A stretch of DNA of 35,253 bases from a virus (taxonomy: Duplodnaviria; Heunggongvirae; Uroviricota; Caudoviricetes), in the IMG/VR virus record IMGVR_UViG_2778261009_000009; one strand, given 5' to 3'. The notes beneath the pieces are model-generated. The model searched no databases and was not told the origin of the DNA. It worked only from the letters and a program-made list of their open reading frames with translations. The translations under genes and the position numbers were made by a program. Below are positions 3,351 through 10,587 of this stretch, one piece after another (within the stretch, counting starts at the first letter, position 1; every line of letters begins with the position of its first letter).

Positions 3351-4177
3351 AAGAAATGCACCACGGAATTCATCATTTCCATGGGACGCCTGTCTGGGGA
3401 AGTGCTGGCGACGTTCATCGTATTGCGGTGAGCGGAGCTGGCGCTTTCGTCTCCTATGTACGACCAGATCAGATTGCGGCGTCCATTCAGCACGCTCAGG
3501 TCGTCGGCATTGATAACGGCGCATTTTCTGCATGGGTGCGTGGGCTAAAAATTAACTGGAGTGATTTTTATAAATGGCTCCTGAACTATTACCACCATCC
3601 TAAGGTCGCTTTTTTTGTCATTCCTGATGTTGTGGACGGAGGTGAACGTGACAATGATGCCCTGATAAACGAAGTTCCGAAAATGTTCTACGGGAAGGCA
3701 ACTCCCGTCTGGCATCTGCACGAGTCAATCGATCGGCTTATCGAGCTATGTCGTGAATGGCCTCGTGTCTGCTTTGGATCGTCTGGTGAATATGCGGCTA
3801 TCAGAACTGCGCACTGGCATCGTCGTATGCAGGACGCTTTTGAAGCAATTTATTGCCGACACAATTTCAAAACAGCTGTTCATGGTTTGCGCATGCTTGA
3901 CGGTCGTGTGTTGGGAAATTACCCACTGGCGACTGCCGACAGTACAAATCTTGCCTGCAATGTCCCCAAATTTAATAGCAAATATCCTGAGCTGACGCGG
4001 GCTATTCAGGAGGCTGAGTATTCGCGCAATCTGACGGAAAAGGAGCTGAAAGCTGTCATTCTGAAAAACCGTTGCGCAATTTTAAAAGGTGCAATTGAAG
4101 CTGTTCGCCCACCTTCAGTTTCTGATTGGCTGTCGAATGGTTTGCAGCCTTCACAGCTCGAACTGGAGATTGCGTAA
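3347..4177 (+). CDS. TGT-fold (tRNA-guanine transglycosylase-like, possibly DpdA-like) protein; hypothesis
   Basis: 276-aa ORF with motifs resembling TGT catalytic-Asp segments (VVGIDNGAF ~ LTDSGGFQ; FFVIPDVV ~ MIFDEC; GLRMLDGR ~ GIDMFDC); no CxCxxC zinc motif; start overlaps dam stop. Confidence 0.45.
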
Positions 4178-6518
4178 TGAACTACAGCTATTCCTGGAAT
4201 GCTGAGAAAAAAGCAATCAATCCTTACGTAGAGACGGAAGAGCAATCTTCAGTTTCTGCGCTTTCAAACCTGATCGCTCTGTACGCTGCCGATAACGAGC
4301 AGGAACAGCTGCGCCGCGAGGCACTGAGTGATCAGGTCTGGGAGCGTTATTTCTTTAATGAATCCCGTGATCCTGTCCAGCGCGAAATGGAGCAGGATAA
4401 GCTCATTAGTCGGGCAAAGCTGGCGCATGAGCAGCAGCGTTTTAATCCAGATATGGTCATTCTGGCGGACGTTAATGCCCAGCCTTCCCATATCAGCAAG
4501 CCACTGATGCAACGTATTGAATACTTCAGCAGCCTGGGCAGGCCAAAGGCTTATTCCCGCTATTTGCGTGAGACGATTAAGCCATGTCTGGAACGGCTGG
4601 AGCATGTACGCGACTGTCAGCTATCCACTTCTTTTCGCTTTATGGCAAGCCATGAAGGGCTGGACGGCCTGCTGATCCTGCCTGAAATGAGTCAGGATCA
4701 GGTGAAACGCCTGTCCACCCTGGTAGCTGCGCATATGAGCATGTGCCTTGATGCAGCTTGTGGCGATTTGTATGTCACCGATGACGTTAAGCCAGAAGAA
4801 ATCCGCAAGACATGGGAAAAGGTGGCAGCGGAAACCCTGCGTCTGGATGTTATCCCGCCTGCGTTTGAGCAACTCCGCCGGAAAAGAAACCGCCGTAAAC
4901 CCGTGCCCTATGAACTCATTCCGGGTTCGCTGGCGCGTATGTTGTGCGCTGACTGGTGGTACCGGAAATTATGGAAGATGCGTTGCGAATGGCGGGAAGA
5001 GCAGTTGCGTGCTGTCTGCCTGGTCAGCAAAAAGCATCTCCCTATGTCAGCTATGAAGCCGTGATGCATAAACGTGAGCAGCGCCGTAAGTCGCTGGAGT
5101 TTTTTCGTTCTCATGAACTGGTGAACGAAGACGGCGACACGCTGGACATGGAGGATGTGGTAAACGCCAGCAGCAGCAACCCTGCGCATCGCCGCAATGA
5201 GATGATGGCCTGTGTTAAAGGCCTGGAGCTTATCGCGGAAATGCGCGGTGACTGCGCCGTTTTCTACACCATCACCTGTCCGTCACGTTTCCATTCCACG
5301 CTAAATAATGGCAGGCCCAACCCAACTTGGACAAATGCGACGGTAAGACAAAGCAGTGATTATCTGGTCGGCATGTTTGCTGCATTTCGTAAGGCGATGC
5401 ACAAAGCCGGATTGCGGTGGTATGGCGTGCGGGTGGCTGAGCCGCATCATGACGGTACAGTTCACTGGCACCTGTTGTGTTTTATGCGCAAAAAAGACCG
5501 CCGCGCCATCACTGCATTACTGCGTAAGTTTGCCATCCGTGAAGACCGCGAGGAACTGGGCAATAACACTGGGCCGCGCTTTAAGTCTGAGTTGATTAAC
5601 CCGCGCAAAGGTACGCCAACAAGCTACATCGCGAAATACATCAGTAAGAACATTGACGGGCGTGGTCTGGCTGGCGAGATCAGCAAGGAAACGGGGAAAT
5701 CCCTGCGTGATAATGCTGAATACGTTAATGCCTGGGCGTCTCTGCATCGTGTTCAGCAATTCCGCTTCTTTGGCATTCCGGGGCGTCAGGCTTACCGTGA
5801 ACTGCGATTGCTGGCTGGTCAGGCGGCAAGGCAACAGGGGGACAAAAAAGCAGGTGCGCCGGTACTGGATAACCCGCGCCTTGATGCCATCCTGGCTGCT
5901 GCTGATGCTGGTTGTTTTGCCACCTACATCATGAAGCAGGGCGGCGTACTGGTTCCCCGCAAATATCACCTCATCAGAACCGCTTATGAAATCAACGAAG
6001 AGCCGACCGCCTATGGCGATCACGGCATTCGTATTTATGGCATCTGGTCACCTATTGCAGAGGGCAAGATCTGCACTCATGCCGTGAAGTGGAAAATGGT
6101 TCGTAAGGCCGTTGATGTTCAGGAGGCGGCAGCCGACCAGGGCGCTTGCGCCCCTTGGACTCGTGGCAATAACTGTCCCCCTGTTGAAAATTTGAACCAA
6201 TCAGGGGGCGATTTACCAGAAGCCAGTGGGCCGGAGTCGCTGCCGGATCTTCATAATCTGAGCGCGAAGGAACGACGGGAGCTGACGGCGCGGCTGAGAT
6301 TGGTAAAACCTAAGCGGCGGAAAGGGTACAAACAGCAGATTAGCAATCATCAGCGCCAGCAGCTTGATGCTGAACTGAGGTCTAGGGGGTTCGATGCGAG
6401 TGATACCGAGGTGGATCTGCTTTTGCGTGGTGGCAGTATCCCGTCCGGGGCCGGGCTGCGTTTGTTCTATCGAAACCAGCGCCTGCAGGAAGATGATAAA
6501 TGGCGGCAGTGGTACTAA
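4177..6518 (+). CDS. A: Replication initiation protein A (HUH rolling-circle endonuclease), interrupted by a frame change near 5029-5034 (ORFs 4177..5064 and 4956..6518)
   Basis: [16 protein letters not shown] motif and [12 protein letters not shown] tyrosine motif in the downstream frame; both frames resemble P2 A across the junction as recalled from memory. Confidence 0.8.
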
Positions 6519-6550
6519 TGTGAGAGTATTTTATATTCATATTCAAAAAT

Positions 6551-6582
6551 GCCAGCCTAACAAATCAGGCTGACATTTTTTT
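6551..6582. terminator. Bidirectional rho-independent terminator between gene A and convergent cargo operon
   Basis: Stem cagcct/aggctg (6553-6558/6567-6572), T7 run 6576-6582 on plus, A5 run 6545-6549 giving T-run on minus. Confidence 0.5.
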
Positions 6583-6589
6583 ACTTACT

Positions 6590-7048
6590 CTATTTAGTTT
6601 TTTCAATCATAGTGCTTTCGGCTTTTGAATATACACTATTAATAGTGGTGATTTTTGTAGTTAATGCTATACAAACTAGACTCAGAAGTAAGACACCAAT
6701 TGATATTGTATTGTTGCTGAGTATTATATGTAGACAAATAGAATAAATTGCAACAATGACTATTGCTACGAAAACAAAGATTGCCATTAAATTATGTGCT
6801 TTGATGTAGTCCTCAGGGGTTAATATGTAGCTTATGTTTATGATTATAAATAAAATTAAAAATGCTCCCCCAATCCATTTGGGTAGGGCTGTTTCTTTTT
6901 TTGATACTGCAGGTGTGGTTCTTGGGATCGATTCTACGAAGGATTTAAGATTTCCCATGTCAGTATTGTTTAATGCTGCACTTTCTGCTTCGAATTTTGA
7001 AACAGTGCCATCAGGAAGGGTTGTAGTCCAGCTTATTTTTCCTGTCAT
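6590..7048 (-). CDS. cargo membrane protein (152 aa; about 55-aa soluble N-terminus then about 3 TM helices), unknown function
   Basis: AT-rich ORF; start ATG overlaps upstream stop (ATGA); AGGGA RBS; hydrophobic segments FLILFIIINISYIL, MAIFVFVAIVIVAIYSI, IGVLLLSLVCIAL. Confidence 0.6.
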   Translation of the reverse strand: MTGKISWTTTLPDGTVSKFEAESAALNNTDMGNLKSFVESIPRTTPAVSKKETALPKWIGGAFLILFIIINISYILTPEDYIKAHNLMAIFVFVAIVIVAIYSICLHIILSNNTISIGVLLLSLVCIALTTKITTINSVYSKAESTMIEKTK

Positions 7049-7419
7049 ACAACATCCCTTATTCTGAATATTCTATTAAAATCAATATCAACAGCAGAGT
7101 TCGACCACTCACTCTTTTGATTATCTTTAATTAGAATTGCTTTGTTCTCGTCAAAGATTATATTTGTACCACTAAACTCAATATGAGATAGGTCTCCTCT
7201 AAATATTTTTTGCTCAACGCTTTTGAATGCATCTTTTAATGATGCACACTCTTTTCTGAATAATGGTTTGGGGCTGTAAGTCCCTAAGTTTATAACTATT
7301 ACGCCACTACCATCTTTAGCAGGGTGAATGGAGAAAGATAGCGCTAATCCGTGATAGTGGGATTGTATTTTCTTCATTAATTTACGAACGTAATCATCAT
7401 ACCGCTTTCTATATATCAT
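7045..7419 (-). CDS. cargo soluble protein (124 aa), unknown function, first gene of two-gene operon
   Basis: AT-rich ORF translationally coupled to 6590..7048; candidate promoter TCGACA-18-TAATAT upstream on minus strand. Confidence 0.55.
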   Translation of the reverse strand: MIYRKRYDDYVRKLMKKIQSHYHGLALSFSIHPAKDGSGVIVINLGTYSPKPLFRKECASLKDAFKSVEQKIFRGDLSHIEFSGTNIIFDENKAILIKDNQKSEWSNSAVDIDFNRIFRIRDVV

Positions 7420-7583
7420 TTTTTTCTTAATGGTTAGTTGTTTTTCGTATATTACAATACTAATAAATATATTGTCGATTCAAATAAAACGTTGTAGCCA
7501 AGCGGAAGAATTTTAGTTTACGGATGGTTGTTTTTTGATCTCCATAGCCGAAGGCAATCTGAACTATAGTGATCATAAAAGTG

Positions 7584-7627
7584 TTTACATTCATGGAACT
7601 ACGCATATACTGTATATGTGTACAGTG
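7584..7627 (+). promoter_or_regulatory. SOS-regulated promoter: -35 TTTACA (7584-7589), -10 TATACT (7606-7611), LexA box TACTGTATATGTGTACAGTG (7608-7627)
   Basis: Perfect CTGT-N8-ACAG palindrome (7610-7625) overlapping the -10 and start site, about 30 bp upstream of a strong RBS. Confidence 0.7.
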
Positions 7628-7657
7628 CTTTCTGTGTGTTTGGTGATAGGAGGGAAG

Positions 7658-7846
7658 ATGCAAGACTATTTTTTGGAGTCGTTGAAGCTCCAGCGCATTG
7701 ATTTTTTTGTCAAGCTTGTGGCGGCTAGTGAGTGTGATGATGAAGAGAAGCGACTGGCTATCCAGTGGGTTTCTGAGTTAACGGATGAGCTGATGGCAAA
7801 GATTCGTGCTCATGAATACAACCGCTCAATGGATCTTCCCAGTTAA
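7658..7846 (+). CDS. SOS-controlled small protein (62 aa), candidate Tum/DinI-like antirepressor
   Basis: ATG at 7658 with TAGGAGGGA RBS immediately downstream of LexA box; acidic small protein; weak resemblance to DinI C-terminus. Confidence 0.55.
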   Translation: MQDYFLESLKLQRIDFFVKLVAASECDDEEKRLAIQWVSELTDELMAKIRAHEYNRSMDLPS

Positions 7847-7924
7847 CAGCAGGAACGTTGCTGGCGTGAGAACTAGCTTCTTACGTCAGCAAGGTTAAAC
7901 AACGAGTACAACGAGGCGTTAGCC

Positions 7925-8191
7925 ATGGGTAAATCCAACAGCAAATTCCAGACCGTTTATGAGGGGCAGGCGCTTGAACGTGACGAACTTGGCGGATGGG
8001 TTTTGTTTCAGCGTCGTGTAGAGTATGGCGGCAAGTACTGGATGGGAATAACCATGGATGATGTGTTTTTGTTTGGCTCCGATCATCCTGTATCAGGTAG
8101 TGAGGCGATGGTCTTCATCATTGATTATGAGGGCGAGCAGCTCAGACGGTCTTTACCCGTTGGATACACCCCACAAATGCCGCTTTTCTGA
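7925..8191 (+). CDS. SOS-operon second gene (88 aa), unknown function
   Basis: ORF with GAGG RBS, same strand, followed by strong terminator. Confidence 0.5.
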   Translation: MGKSNSKFQTVYEGQALERDELGGWVLFQRRVEYGGKYWMGITMDDVFLFGSDHPVSGSEAMVFIIDYEGEQLRRSLPVGYTPQMPLF

Positions 8192-8258
8192 CAACCGGCT
8201 GGGTGCATGTCTATGCTGCATGAGATCGCATGATCGTTTGAGGATCGTTTTCGCTGAG

Positions 8259-8286
8259 GCCCGCCAGAACTGGCGGGCTTTTGCTT
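8259..8286 (+). terminator. rho-independent terminator of the SOS operon
   Basis: 8-bp GC stem gcccgcca/tggcgggc, loop gaac, followed by TTTTGCTT. Confidence 0.75.
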
Positions 8287-8327
8287 ATGTCATGCAGGTG
8301 CATGAAAATCGCTCCATAAAGCGGGCA

Positions 8328-8346
8328 GGCGTGGCGGGGATACGAG
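8328..8346. other. candidate cos site (cohesive-end sequence) GGCGTGGCGGGGATACGAG
   Basis: First 13 nt match the P2/186-family 19-nt cohesive end as I recall it (GGCG(A/T)GGCGGGGAAAGCA...); lies in non-coding DNA between right-end genes and the Q side. Confidence 0.35.
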
Positions 8347-8433
8347 CGCGCGCAATAGGGTTATGTACAATAAATTTTTGACGATCTTCGAGTGTTATTA
8401 GCTTGAGGCTGTCAGGGAAAATGAATACAATAA

Positions 8434-8465
8434 GAAGCGCCTAGCAGAATGTTACTAGGCGCTTC
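8434..8465 (-). terminator. perfect 11-bp inverted repeat hairpin (gaagcgcctag ... ctaggcgcttc), possible terminator of the minus-strand cargo operon
   Basis: Read directly; followed on minus strand by T-rich stretch; no T-run on plus. Confidence 0.35.
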
Positions 8466-8498
8466 GAATATATAACCTGTATGACTTTCTTAACCTAC

Positions 8499-8606
8499 TT
8501 ATCTTTTTGATTTCTTCTTCGTATCATCGTGATCGAATACTTGGCGTGTAGGCGGCTTGCTGGGTGGTGGCGGCGGCGGTAAATTAGATTTCTCATTTTT
8601 GCTCAT
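8499..8606 (-). CDS. polyproline mini-ORF 3 (35 aa): MSKNEKSNLPPPPPPSKPPTRQVFDHDDTKKKSKR
   Basis: Hand-translated; own AGGA RBS; start lies inside the end of mini-ORF 2; paralogous to two upstream mini-ORFs. Confidence 0.35.
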   Translation of the reverse strand: MSKNEKSNLPPPPPPSKPPTRQVFDHDDTKKKSKR

Positions 8607-8724
8607 CTTTATTTTTCCTATTTTTTGGATCATTGCCATAGCTTTCTCTAACTAACCGAGTGATTGGCGGTTTAGGTGGTGGTGGTGGTGCTTCATTTTT
8701 TTTAGGATTTTTGTGTTCGGTCAT
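8593..8724 (-). CDS. polyproline mini-ORF 2 (43 aa): MTEHKNPKKNEAPPPPPKPPITRLVRESYGNDPKNRKNKDEQK
   Basis: In-frame portion of track ORF 8593..8778 starting at ATG 8724 with AAGGA RBS; overlaps neighbours in other frames. Confidence 0.4.
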   Translation of the reverse strand: MTEHKNPKKNEAPPPPPKPPITRLVRESYGNDPKNRKNKDEQK

Positions 8725-8839
8725 TTTTATCGTCCTTTCTGTCTCTTCGTAGTTGCCTTGCTTTTGAATCATCTTCAATAACGATCCTTCTTGCGGGTGG
8801 AGTAGGCCGAGGAGGTGGTGGCGGTAACGGTTTGGTCAT
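8702..8839 (-). CDS. polyproline mini-ORF 1 (45 aa): MTKPLPPPPPRPTPPARRIVIEDDSKARQLRRDRKDDKNDRTQKS
   Basis: Hand-translated; ATG overlaps stop of upstream membrane-protein gene (TAATG); AGGAGA RBS 5 nt upstream. Confidence 0.4.
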   Translation of the reverse strand: MTKPLPPPPPRPTPPARRIVIEDDSKARQLRRDRKDDKNDRTQKS

Positions 8840-9489
8840 TAAGTTCTCCTGACATTTTCAATAGGTATTATCAAATAGTTAGGGTCGTTATTTTTCCGCG
8901 GTGATGCTGCATCTAAATCAGCTAAAAGAAATATGACTACTGCTGCGATAATTGGAATCCATGACCAGACAAGATACTTTGTTGACTCAAATAGTTTACT
9001 GGAACGTTCCTCATTGATATTACTGTTCCAGCTAGCACATTCTCTGATTTCTTGATGAATAAACTCCCAAAGTTTATTATCAGGGTTATAACTTTCATCG
9101 TATGTAAGTCCATTGTCATCGCAATATTTTTTATATTTCACTTCGTAACTAATCAGATCTATGTGATAATCATGCAATGCTTTAGGTGCAGGGCAATACT
9201 TAAATTCATTTCCCCATATGACTTGTTTCAACAGAATTGATGATACAAGAACTAAACCAAATGAAATTGCGGTACATAAAAATACTAGGCAAGCTAGCCT
9301 TGGGTGGGATTCATAAGATGTATTTTTGGCGAGATAAGTGAGTATAGTTGCGGTAATGACAACTAATCCGAATTCGGCTTGAGCGCGAGTATGTATCTTG
9401 TCTTTATTCTCAATTTCTGAGAAATAAAGTTTTTCGTAAAATTCTAATGCTTTATCCTTTTTCATTTTTAGATTCAGTGTGATGTCCAT
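8839..9489 (-). CDS. cargo membrane protein (216 aa; two N-proximal TM helices, soluble Cys-containing middle domain, C-terminal TM helix), unknown function
   Basis: AT-rich ORF between portal terminator and mini-ORFs; hydrophobic segments FGLVVITATILTYL, LACLVFLCTAISFGLVLVSSILL, VWSWIPIIAAVVIFLL. Confidence 0.6.
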   Translation of the reverse strand: MDITLNLKMKKDKALEFYEKLYFSEIENKDKIHTRAQAEFGLVVITATILTYLAKNTSYESHPRLACLVFLCTAISFGLVLVSSILLKQVIWGNEFKYCPAPKALHDYHIDLISYEVKYKKYCDDNGLTYDESYNPDNKLWEFIHQEIRECASWNSNINEERSSKLFESTKYLVWSWIPIIAAVVIFLLADLDAASPRKNNDPNYLIIPIENVRRT

Positions 9490-9510
9490 GTATCAAACAT
9501 ATCACGATAA

Positions 9511-9540
9511 CAAAAAAAGAAAAGCCGCAATTCTGCGGCT
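9511..9540 (-). terminator. rho-independent terminator downstream of portal gene Q
   Basis: Stem agccgca/tgcggct (9523-9529/9534-9540) followed on minus strand by T-tract (plus A-run 9511-9522). Confidence 0.6.
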
Positions 9541-9549
9541 GTTGGGAAG

Positions 9550-10587
9550 CTAATCTAGCGATAATTCGTAATTTGTGAACCCTATCGCGTTTTTATCCAG
9601 CCATTTATTAAGCTCCTCAAAGCGTCTCTGAAGCGGAATAAGTTCATTACGAACGAATACGCGGCTGGCCTTCTCCACATCCCCAAATCCCCCAACATTA
9701 TTAGGCATAATCCCCATCATTTGCGGTGGCACACGATGCGCCGCCATCATGTCATCCCGGCTCACGTTCTTGATGTTTAGAAACTCATCCTTCGCCGCGA
9801 CTTCTGACAGAGGAATGATCTGAAGCCCATCCTTTTTGCCGTTAGGCGAGTACATAAACAGGTTGCGGAAGTTACCCGGTCCTTTGGCGCTTTTCATCGC
9901 ATTGCGGAGGTTGTTCACATCCTCCTGGTTCTGCGCGGCATCGGTCATGTACATGATGAAGCCTGCATGACTACCGTTAATGTAATACTTCCGGCGGAAC
10001 AGCGTGGCGGACTCGTTGAGCAAAGCGGATGGGATGGCAGAAAGATAGCCGGGCAGGCCGTAGATCTCCTGATTAATATCCGGTTCCATCAGATGAAAAA
10101 TGCTGCCTTTCGAGAACTGATACGGCTGGGTTGTCATACCGTATTGCACAAACCAGTAGGTATCCAGGTCTAACCCGCGTCGGGTATATTTTGCCAGAGC
10201 AGGCTCAAGGGCGATAACTTCACCGAAGCGGTTCGTGCGTTTCTCCAAGTAGGCGTTACCAAATACCAGATAGTCCTGCACAAAACGTGAAAAAGCCTGC
10301 TGGCTGAGCAGCGGGTGAGGGATGTAGGTACTGGTCAGTATGTTGCATTTCACCGCAATTGGTGAACTGTGATGCACGGCAGCGCGGAAGGTGCGCGCCA
10401 GTCCGTCAAAGCTCACTGGCGGCTCATACCAGCGATCTGTCTGTACGCATTCCACATAGTCCAGCAGTTCTCGGCGGTCCAGAACAGGAACGGGATCGCC
10501 GAAGCTGAATGCTTCGGCTGTAGTTTGACTTTTAAGCTGGATCTGTTTTGTCGCCGAAGCGCGGTTCTTCTTACTCTTTCCCATCAA
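9550..10587 (-). CDS. Q: portal protein (capsid portal, gpQ-like)
   Basis: 345-aa ORF colinear with P2 Q; start overlaps terminase stop (ATGATG with TGA). Confidence 0.85.
   Translation of the reverse strand: MMGKSKKNRASATKQIQLKSQTTAEAFSFGDPVPVLDRRELLDYVECVQTDRWYEPPVSFDGLARTFRAAVHHSSPIAVKCNILTSTYIPHPLLSQQAFSRFVQDYLVFGNAYLEKRTNRFGEVIALEPALAKYTRRGLDLDTYWFVQYGMTTQPYQFSKGSIFHLMEPDINQEIYGLPGYLSAIPSALLNESATLFRRKYYINGSHAGFIMYMTDAAQNQEDVNNLRNAMKSAKGPGNFRNLFMYSPNGKKDGLQIIPLSEVAAKDEFLNIKNVSRDDMMAAHRVPPQMMGIMPNNVGGFGDVEKASRVFVRNELIPLQRRFEELNKWLDKNAIGFTNYELSLD

Follow-up and report, generated by a model that had tools for sequence, protein, structure and literature searches.

To judge from sequence comparisons, two small overlapping genes on the minus strand of a P2/186-like prophage form a cargo module that is real, clearly bounded and under evolutionary constraint. 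The prophage DNA is a stretch of 35,253 nucleotides (nt), IMG/VR virus record IMGVR_UViG_2778261009_000009 (Caudoviricetes), which is referred to in its full length as the window. The two genes are termed cargo genes A and B, and their products proteins A and B, as distinct from the phage replication gene A (gpA) beside which they lie. The best reading of the pair is a self-contained, horizontally mobile accessory module of two genes, carried by the prophage as cargo and standing outside the phage life cycle. It is probably a phage-defence or toxin-type module.

Organization of the cargo gene pair

The insert that carries the pair and its elements have the following positions in the window, in which lengths of proteins are given in amino acids (aa), ORF denotes an open reading frame and TM a transmembrane helix.

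6520-7619, minus strand: whole cargo insert of 1.1 kb, comprising terminator, gene B, gene A and promoter region (from blastn boundaries and G+C content)
7045-7419, minus strand: cargo gene A, encoding a basic (isoelectric point 9.5) cytoplasmic protein of 124 aa (from the ORF and a family length of ~125 aa)
6590-7048, minus strand: cargo gene B, encoding a small inner-membrane protein of 152 aa with a polar N-terminal head of ~55 aa and three TM helices (from the ORF and hydropathy)
7045-7059, minus strand: coupling junction, with the Shine-Dalgarno sequence AGGGA at 7059-7055, a 6-nt spacer, and the ATG of gene B (7048-7046) overlapping the TGA of gene A (7047-7045) (read from the sequence)
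6920-7048, minus strand: codons 1-43 of gene B, a nearly invariant cytoplasmic head domain (from the alignment of B versions, A2)
6650-6874, minus strand: predicted TM region of protein B, with residues 59-77 at 6818-6874, residues 87-105 at 6734-6790 and residues 115-133 at 6650-6706
7449-7478, minus strand: candidate sigma-70 promoter, with a -35 element TCGACA at 7478-7473, an 18-nt spacer and a -10 element TAATAT at 7454-7449 (promoter scan, 9 of 12 matches)
6545-6580, no strand assigned: bidirectional terminator with 14-nt arms at 6545-6558 and 6567-6580 that are 93% complementary (scan match at 6553-6572)

The two genes share an ATGA overlap at 7048-7045, and the Shine-Dalgarno sequence of gene B is found inside the 3' end of gene A. 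The three hydropathy maxima of protein B, at residues 59-77, 87-105 and 115-133, have peaks of 2.27, 2.97 and 2.23 (Kyte-Doolittle, 19-residue window), and an 'NNTIS' loop is located between the second and third TM helices. The G+C content is 0.31-0.37 over 6450-7650 compared with 0.53-0.57 in the replication gene A. An earlier note on this DNA had described an AT-rich operon of two minus-strand genes for proteins of 124 and 152 aa, coupled through an ATGA overlap, of which the second would have a soluble N terminus followed by about three TM helices; all of these features are observed. RefSeq places the start of protein A at M15, giving a protein of 110 aa. From the alignments, the 124-aa start is better supported, because residues 1-11 are invariant despite synonymous changes and Y10 is kept in 55 of 56 family members.

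The pair is flanked on one side by the replication gene A, a Phage_GPA match (E 3.5e-98) that ends at 6518, and is separated by further genes from gene Q, a Phage_portal gene on the minus strand at 9550-10587. The terminator hairpin next to the replication gene A has the arms AAAAATGCCAGCCT and AGGCTGACATTTTT. It carries an A-run on one flank and a T-run on the other, and termination is therefore possible in both directions. This intrinsic terminator is common to the replication gene A on the plus strand and the cargo pair on the minus strand, as the note had proposed. The note had also proposed the promoter upstream of cargo gene A. The site is present at 7478-7449 and its elements are conserved in three diverged versions of the locus: the -35 hexamer and a TATTGTAAtATA block are kept in Klebsiella and Enterobacteriaceae loci, and the remaining upstream DNA diverges or varies in length. 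What did not stand is the consensus match by itself, which is at the level of chance; nine promoter-like sites were found by consensus where 9.4 were expected, and TCGACA-18-TAATAT taken alone is no better than chance. No RNA families were found in an Rfam scan of positions 6000-9700.

Selection on the two genes

The pair is known in three versions: one in E. coli and Citrobacter, one in Klebsiella (84% identity in protein A, 89% in protein B) and one in Enterobacter and Pseudenterobacter (72% and 69%, respectively). Homologues of protein B with 69-99% identity always adjoin A. The ratio of nonsynonymous to synonymous substitution rates (dN/dS) is 0.146 for A and 0.122 for B (B against the Klebsiella version), and against the most distant version synonymous changes have reached saturation. 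These values point to strong purifying selection on both genes. Constraint is distributed unevenly along gene B: codons 1-43 contain 19-20 synonymous versus 1-2 nonsynonymous differences, and the rest of the gene has a dN of ~0.3.

The protein A family

Protein A matches phrog_18061 (E 1.5e-13), and protein B has a single, weak match, to phrog 16940; both are function-unknown families of PHROGs. Exhaustive HMMER searches of 1.84 billion representative proteins extend the A family to 74 clusters of near full-length matches, with proteins of ~125-131 aa, compared with only 3-4 close clusters from a word-indexed search. An alignment of 56 members, A3, displays the signature GxL..F.GTN...E.NRIILIKDD...EW, in which G84 and K98 are invariant; Y10, G38, F82, T85, W105 and D113 are nearly so, and Q70 and N86 also belong to the conserved set. 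Some family members have N-terminal extensions, which look like mis-called starts; fused domains were rejected.

The earlier note had recognized no motif in either protein, and none emerged here: neither A nor B has a family match in Pfam, NCBIfam or PADLOC. No Pfam family was found at E<=1 for the window proteins and the partner proteins described below, or at E<=0.1 for the 56 A-family members. PADLOC-DB 2.0 (2023; 5,027 models) gave no match for A, B, eight partner proteins or the 56 members of the A family, apart from three stray single-member matches among the latter. NCBIfam, too, contains no relative of the wider A family. Sub-threshold TM matches, such as one to RdrD (18 bits versus a cutoff of 230), are compositional and were rejected. 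A profile search of the PDB with A3 found no relative, with nothing below E 0.03, and RexA of phage lambda was absent from its results. The remote-homology check that the note had suggested thus yielded an unnamed family of 74 clusters and no relative of assigned function. AlphaFold2 models built from four-sequence alignments have a predicted local distance difference test score (pLDDT) of 45 for A and 56 for B. The model of B contains helices at residues 57-76, 87-109 and 117-151, at low confidence. Foldseek comparisons of these models with the PDB returned no match at E<=0.001, a result that is uninformative at such pLDDT values.

The family is rare in isolate genomes. In a pattern-based scan of 100,044 species genomes, the already known Photobacterium locus was the single match, and IMG/VR gave one P2-like contig and none for the marine type.

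Conserved pairing and exchange of the membrane partner

In the sample of 21 loci, which represent 11 distinct locus types, the A family is never observed alone. In 11 of 11 types, an overlapping gene for a membrane protein of 120-155 aa lies downstream of A, and a start/stop overlap of 1-8 nt is kept in each. Eight additional contexts, with A homologues 22-32% identical to the A of the window, come from a Pseudoalteromonas chromosome, a freshwater metagenome, Photobacterium proteolyticum, Vibrio gallaecicus and four metagenomic contigs; the partner in each of these is 120-142 aa long.

The partners adopt at least two architectures, which are unrelated in sequence. The first comprises three TM helices and includes the enterobacterial type of the window and a freshwater type, which resemble one another weakly (E about 1e-4). 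The second is bitopic and is composed of a 36-aa cytoplasmic head, a single TM helix and a coiled coil, presumably periplasmic, that carries a conserved Cys. A common origin of the 3-TM and 1-TM partners was rejected (hhalign probability 0.2%). The 1-TM partner was also considered as an FtsL-like protein on the basis of its 'FGK-P' motif, TM helix and coiled coil, and this assignment was likewise rejected (hhalign probability 1%). A proteins that have 1-TM partners share 40% identity with the A protein found beside the freshwater 3-TM partner. A proteins this similar thus occur with membrane proteins that have no relationship to one another; A is therefore the hallmark that the family has kept, and exchange has affected the membrane component. 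Such a pattern would fit a constant sensor or regulator to which different effectors can be joined.

A second insertion point between gpA and gpQ

The pair is variable, non-core DNA between gpA and gpQ of a P2-like prophage, as is typical of hotspot cargo. Homology to 186-like E. coli prophages that lack the pair (NC19 and EC101; loci L020 and L021) ends at position 6519 and resumes at ~7620-7643 in blastn comparisons, such that the 1.1-kb insert replaces an intergenic region of ~118 nt in these relatives. Among 5,426 complete E. coli genomes, a related replication gene A is found in 1,277 and the pair in 17, all at >=99% identity; the pair is thus missing from ~99% of E. coli prophages with a related replication gene A. 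A comparison of this slot across P2/186-like prophages, as the note had suggested, therefore defines a discrete insert present in 17 of 1,277 genomes. The note had further placed the pair in the slot where P2 carries old and tin. It does lie within the A-to-Q interval, but at a separate, A-proximal point, from which the Q-proximal slot is divided by a conserved SOS-regulated operon with the following elements.

7584-8191, plus strand: SOS-type operon, with a promoter-like TTTACA-16-TATACT at 7584-7611 whose -10 element is overlapped by the LexA box CTGTATATGTGTACAG
7658-7846, plus strand: gene for a 62-aa protein, phrog_698
7925-8191, plus strand: gene for an 88-aa protein, phrog_2100

The LexA box CTGTATATGTGTACAG (7610-7625) is perfect and is also kept in Klebsiella and Enterobacteriaceae loci. 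In most relatives, the place of the 88-aa gene after the 62-aa gene is taken by a DinI-like gene. The region 7584-8191 looks like the SOS-controlled operon of 186-type phages (p95/tum region). The arrangement reveals, within the gpA-gpQ interval, a second insertion point that is seldom occupied; it lies immediately behind the replication gene A and is distinct from the classical cos-proximal slot. Contents of the A-proximal and Q-proximal slots assort independently. In E. coli EC11, the pair is found together with an Old-like nuclease in the Q-proximal slot, and in other hosts it is combined there with DUF4145, GAPS4-PDDEXK, RES or DUF6953 genes. Conversely, the Pro-rich module that occupies the Q-proximal slot of the window is present in six other E. 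coli genomes, none of them among the 15 listed of the 17 pair carriers, and the locus inspected (strain 639) is without the pair.

Relatives in integrons and genomic islands

Outside enterobacterial prophages, the pair is mobile in a different setting. In V. gallaecicus and P. proteolyticum, it constitutes exactly one cassette of a chromosomal integron, bounded by attC-like repeats of ~130 nt:

1499-2250 of locus L019: pair, between attC-like repeats at 1350-1475 and 2279-2404
5460-6229 of locus L018: pair, between attC-like repeats at 5304-5438 and 6209-6313

In these versions, ~21-28 nt separate the attC repeat from the ATG of A, and the cassettes are oriented like their neighbours. Only the Vibrio and Photobacterium relatives are integron cassettes; a repeat scan of the locus in the window detected no attC-like repeats, and the copy there is prophage cargo. 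The arrays themselves extend over L018 1-7568 and L019 1-7882, with attC-like repeats of about 126-135 nt. Their other cassettes encode Imm33, DinB, AAA_33, DUF922, PhzF, CYTH, NIPSNAP and GFA proteins, and a further cassette encodes a reverse transcriptase (RVT_1) with a 139-aa partner.

Next to distant homologues lie, among others, IS91 and an ApaLI-type restriction-modification system, a TIR-domain protein, a Nhi/AbiO/PDC-S41-like helicase together with PDC-M34A and a Gp49/HigB-like gene, and HicAB. One context (L015) is flanked by housekeeping genes. The gpA-gpQ interval itself is a validated anti-phage hotspot, in which three of eight tested loci were active (PMC9122126). Accessions of the pair are contained in Table S5A of that study, where they appear only as 'hypothetical' riders of Old-like (AAA_15/AAA_21) loci (PMC9122126). 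In V. cholerae, 18% of the integron cassettes tested were anti-phage and 82% were not, and toxin-antitoxin systems are the commonest recognizable systems in chromosomal integrons (10.1101/2024.07.02.601686).

Comparison with known two-gene systems

The overall layout is reminiscent of RexA/RexB of phage lambda, a prophage operon of two genes in which the gene for a soluble protein comes first and is followed by one for a small (~144-152 aa) polytopic inner-membrane protein. RexAB is expressed in the lysogen, and the RexB-type membrane protein is thought to be the effector. The cargo pair has this gene order, and a conserved candidate promoter of its own from which it may be expressed in the lysogen. 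The main differences are in the proteins. RexA has 279 aa and A has 124 aa; neither A nor any of the 56 family members matches Pfam RexA, and hhalign with A3 gives a probability of 0.04%. RexB has four TM helices as opposed to the three predicted in B, which has no Pfam RexB match and an hhalign probability (A2) of 0.9%. With neither protein belonging to its respective family, membership of the pair in RexAB was rejected.

Similar in design is Sucellos (SclA/SclB), an integron-cassette system of V. cholerae in which a soluble protein and a membrane pore kill infected cells (10.1101/2024.07.02.601686). Both genes are needed for this cell suicide. The structure of the system has been described as similar to that of RexAB, and enterobacterial prophages carry it as well. 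The likeness to the cargo pair is that relatives of the latter fill a single integron cassette in Vibrio and Photobacterium. Homology, for which the two were compared by description and host range, is unlikely because the few organism-named homologues of the pair come from neither V. cholerae nor Salmonella, whereas nearly all S. Enteritidis carry Sucellos (PMC13656390).

Other P2 hotspot cargo consists of old, tin and the 'Rst' systems, such as a HAD-like hydrolase with a TM protein or a TIR protein with 2-TM and 1-TM proteins (Rousset et al. 2022, PMC9122126). As in the cargo pair, these modules lie in the gpA-gpQ interval, are AT-rich, have their own promoter and combine a soluble component with a small TM protein that is presumed to be a suicide effector (PMC9122126). 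The cargo pair differs in being A-proximal and upstream of the SOS-controlled operon, and in having neither a hydrolase or TIR domain nor any further identifiable one, and no PADLOC match.

A soluble gene upstream of a small inner-membrane toxin gene in one operon is also the arrangement of YgfY (SdhE/CptB)-YgfX (CptA) and of GhoS-GhoT. The cargo pair is different from both: the window proteins, the partners and the 56 A members have no Pfam Cpta_toxin/Sdh5 or GhoT/GhoS match, and its integron versions appear promoterless. Taken by sequence and layout, the pair would resemble the soluble-plus-membrane two-gene modules of mobile elements while being built from an unannotated protein family.

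Proposed action of the pair and alternative explanations

A sensor-plus-membrane-effector system of abortive infection, already raised in the note, is the hypothesis suggested by the genomic association and architecture of the pair. Transcription of the pair would start at its own promoter and run towards the repressed early operon, from which the bidirectional terminator insulates it. This arrangement would allow expression in the lysogen. A would be translated first and B by coupling to A, so that B would never be made without A, with consequences for the stoichiometry of the two proteins. A may then gate or activate B through the short cytoplasmic head of B, the 43 residues of which are nearly frozen in the enterobacterial version. 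Upon a cue from an infecting, competing phage, the membrane part of B would perturb and damage the inner membrane, and the infection would be aborted or excluded. A membrane effect is proposed because of the RexAB/Sucellos-type layout and the genomic company of the pair. In this model, we infer the contact between A and B, the trigger, and which of the two proteins senses and which acts. We assign the model as a whole a probability of about 45%.

Several observations weigh against it. Homology to a validated defence or toxin-antitoxin protein was found for neither protein in Pfam, NCBIfam, PADLOC 2.0, the PDB or hhalign comparisons with RexA and RexB, and the prior that guilt by association provides for genes of hotspots and integrons is no higher than about 20-40%. 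The polar set of A that is conserved in the family (Y10, Q70, T85, N86, K98 and D113) could equally be an active site. The predicted structures of A and B are too poor at their pLDDT values for a meaningful fold search. A tblastn search with both A types of 50,697 sequenced phages and 72,556 plasmids found nothing, and there is no sign of the pair among the eight loci cloned from the hotspot (PMC9122126).

The main rival is a toxin-antitoxin system in which B is a membrane toxin and A its neutralizer, and which stabilizes the prophage or the integron array by addiction instead of, or besides, defence. The coupling through which B would never be made without A also fits this explanation, as does the presence of small mobile two-gene modules of this family beside HicAB and Gp49/HigB-like genes. 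The parallel with YgfY/YgfX (CptB/CptA) and GhoS/GhoT, with the soluble gene first, is of the same kind. Addiction cassettes normally need an internal promoter; the ~21-28 nt before the ATG of A in the integron versions would leave no room for one, and those cassettes are oriented like the genes around them. In addition, a single-domain A protein would need to neutralize two unrelated membrane proteins, and no Pfam match was found at E<=1, a search that would cover Cpta_toxin, Sdh5, GhoS and GhoT. Even with toxin-antitoxin systems being the most frequent recognizable systems of integrons (10.1101/2024.07.02.601686), addiction is on balance unlikely, if a serious contender.

An accessory 'moron' with a role in host physiology outside phage conflict or addiction, for example in stress, transport or signalling, would account for the lack of defence-family matches and for the L015 context between housekeeping genes, and the proportion of tested integron cassettes that are not anti-phage (82%) is in its favour. 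Such a gene pair would not be expected to recur at defence-rich sites, namely the P2 hotspot and positions beside restriction-modification, TIR, Nhi-like and PDC-M34A genes, and conflict systems typically show partner swapping and fast evolution of the kind seen in the TM part (dN ~0.3); this explanation is considered improbable. Much the same low standing is given to constitutive superinfection exclusion or envelope-level lysogenic conversion, in which B would prevent the entry of DNA or change the envelope of a cell that survives, and A would serve as its cofactor or chaperone. Compatible with exclusion are the position of B in the membrane, the probable production of B in the lysogen from the pair's own promoter, and the presumably periplasmic coiled coil with a conserved Cys in the second partner class, which suggests envelope contacts; in addition, P2-type phages carry the exclusion cargo old, tin and fun in such slots (PMC9122126). 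Exclusion leaves unexplained both the constant coupling of a cytoplasmic A to a membrane protein and the occurrence of the pair in promoterless integron cassettes and non-phage islands, and no similarity to known Sie or Imm-type proteins was found in PHROGs or Pfam.

A part in the phage life cycle tied to the replication gene A, such as a replication accessory or the timing of lysis, or a spurious origin of the two ORFs, is effectively excluded. All that speaks for these possibilities is adjacency to the replication gene A and the AT-richness of the DNA, which can yield long ORFs by chance. The pair is absent from nearly all E. coli prophages with a related replication gene A, it also occurs in integrons and non-phage islands, and the lysis genes of P2-type phages are located elsewhere. 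Values of dN/dS of 0.12-0.15, saturated synonymous sites and a family of 74 clusters speak against chance ORFs.

Returning to the sensor-effector reading, it can be extended beyond the window. The A family may be an unrecognized small cytoplasmic sensor or enzyme domain that defines a new class of abortive-infection systems of minimal size (~0.8 kb), in which small 3-TM and bitopic coiled-coil effectors can replace each other and which is common to P2-like prophage hotspots, integron cassettes and defence islets. We put this generalization forward tentatively, as a possibility that falls somewhat short of an even chance. If active, the pair would be among the smallest two-component defence (or toxin) modules, with a hallmark family that is without an annotated relative. 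It would also provide a natural experiment in effector swapping, and a single gene family would connect three reservoirs of bacterial immunity, namely the hotspots of P2-like prophages, the cassettes of sedentary integrons and small defence islets. If inactive against phages, the pair would still be a well-defined candidate for a membrane toxin.

Other features of the interval

The Q-proximal slot of the window contains cargo of a different kind.

8499-9489, minus strand: Q-proximal cargo, including a gene for a 216-aa membrane-like protein (phrog_36961, E 6e-22; no Pfam or PADLOC match)
8434-8465: terminator hairpin of the Q-proximal cargo

Behind the 216-aa gene lie three mini-ORFs in tandem, of 45, 43 and 35 aa, which overlap one another and start at 8839, 8724 and ~8605; each encodes a PPPPP(P)xxPPxR motif and a tail rich in K, D and E. 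This Pro-rich module is found in only 6 of the 5,426 complete E. coli genomes. Elsewhere, Q-proximal slots (L003 2581-5450, L005 4431-5468 and L020 4411-5759) are occupied by other candidate defence cargo, for example a three-gene locus with a GAPS4-type PDDEXK protein, a RES-domain protein, and a TIR-domain protein with a 243-aa partner. The varied contents of related prophages illustrate turnover in the slot beside cos and Q.

The replication gene A (4177-6518, plus strand) is split near ~5029 into overlapping ORFs at 4126-5064 and 4956-6518. The split results from a 1-nt deletion in an A-run, which has five A residues in the window and six in E. coli EC11, where the gene is intact (780 codons). 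It represents either a genuine frameshift, as in a defective prophage, or a homopolymer sequencing error.

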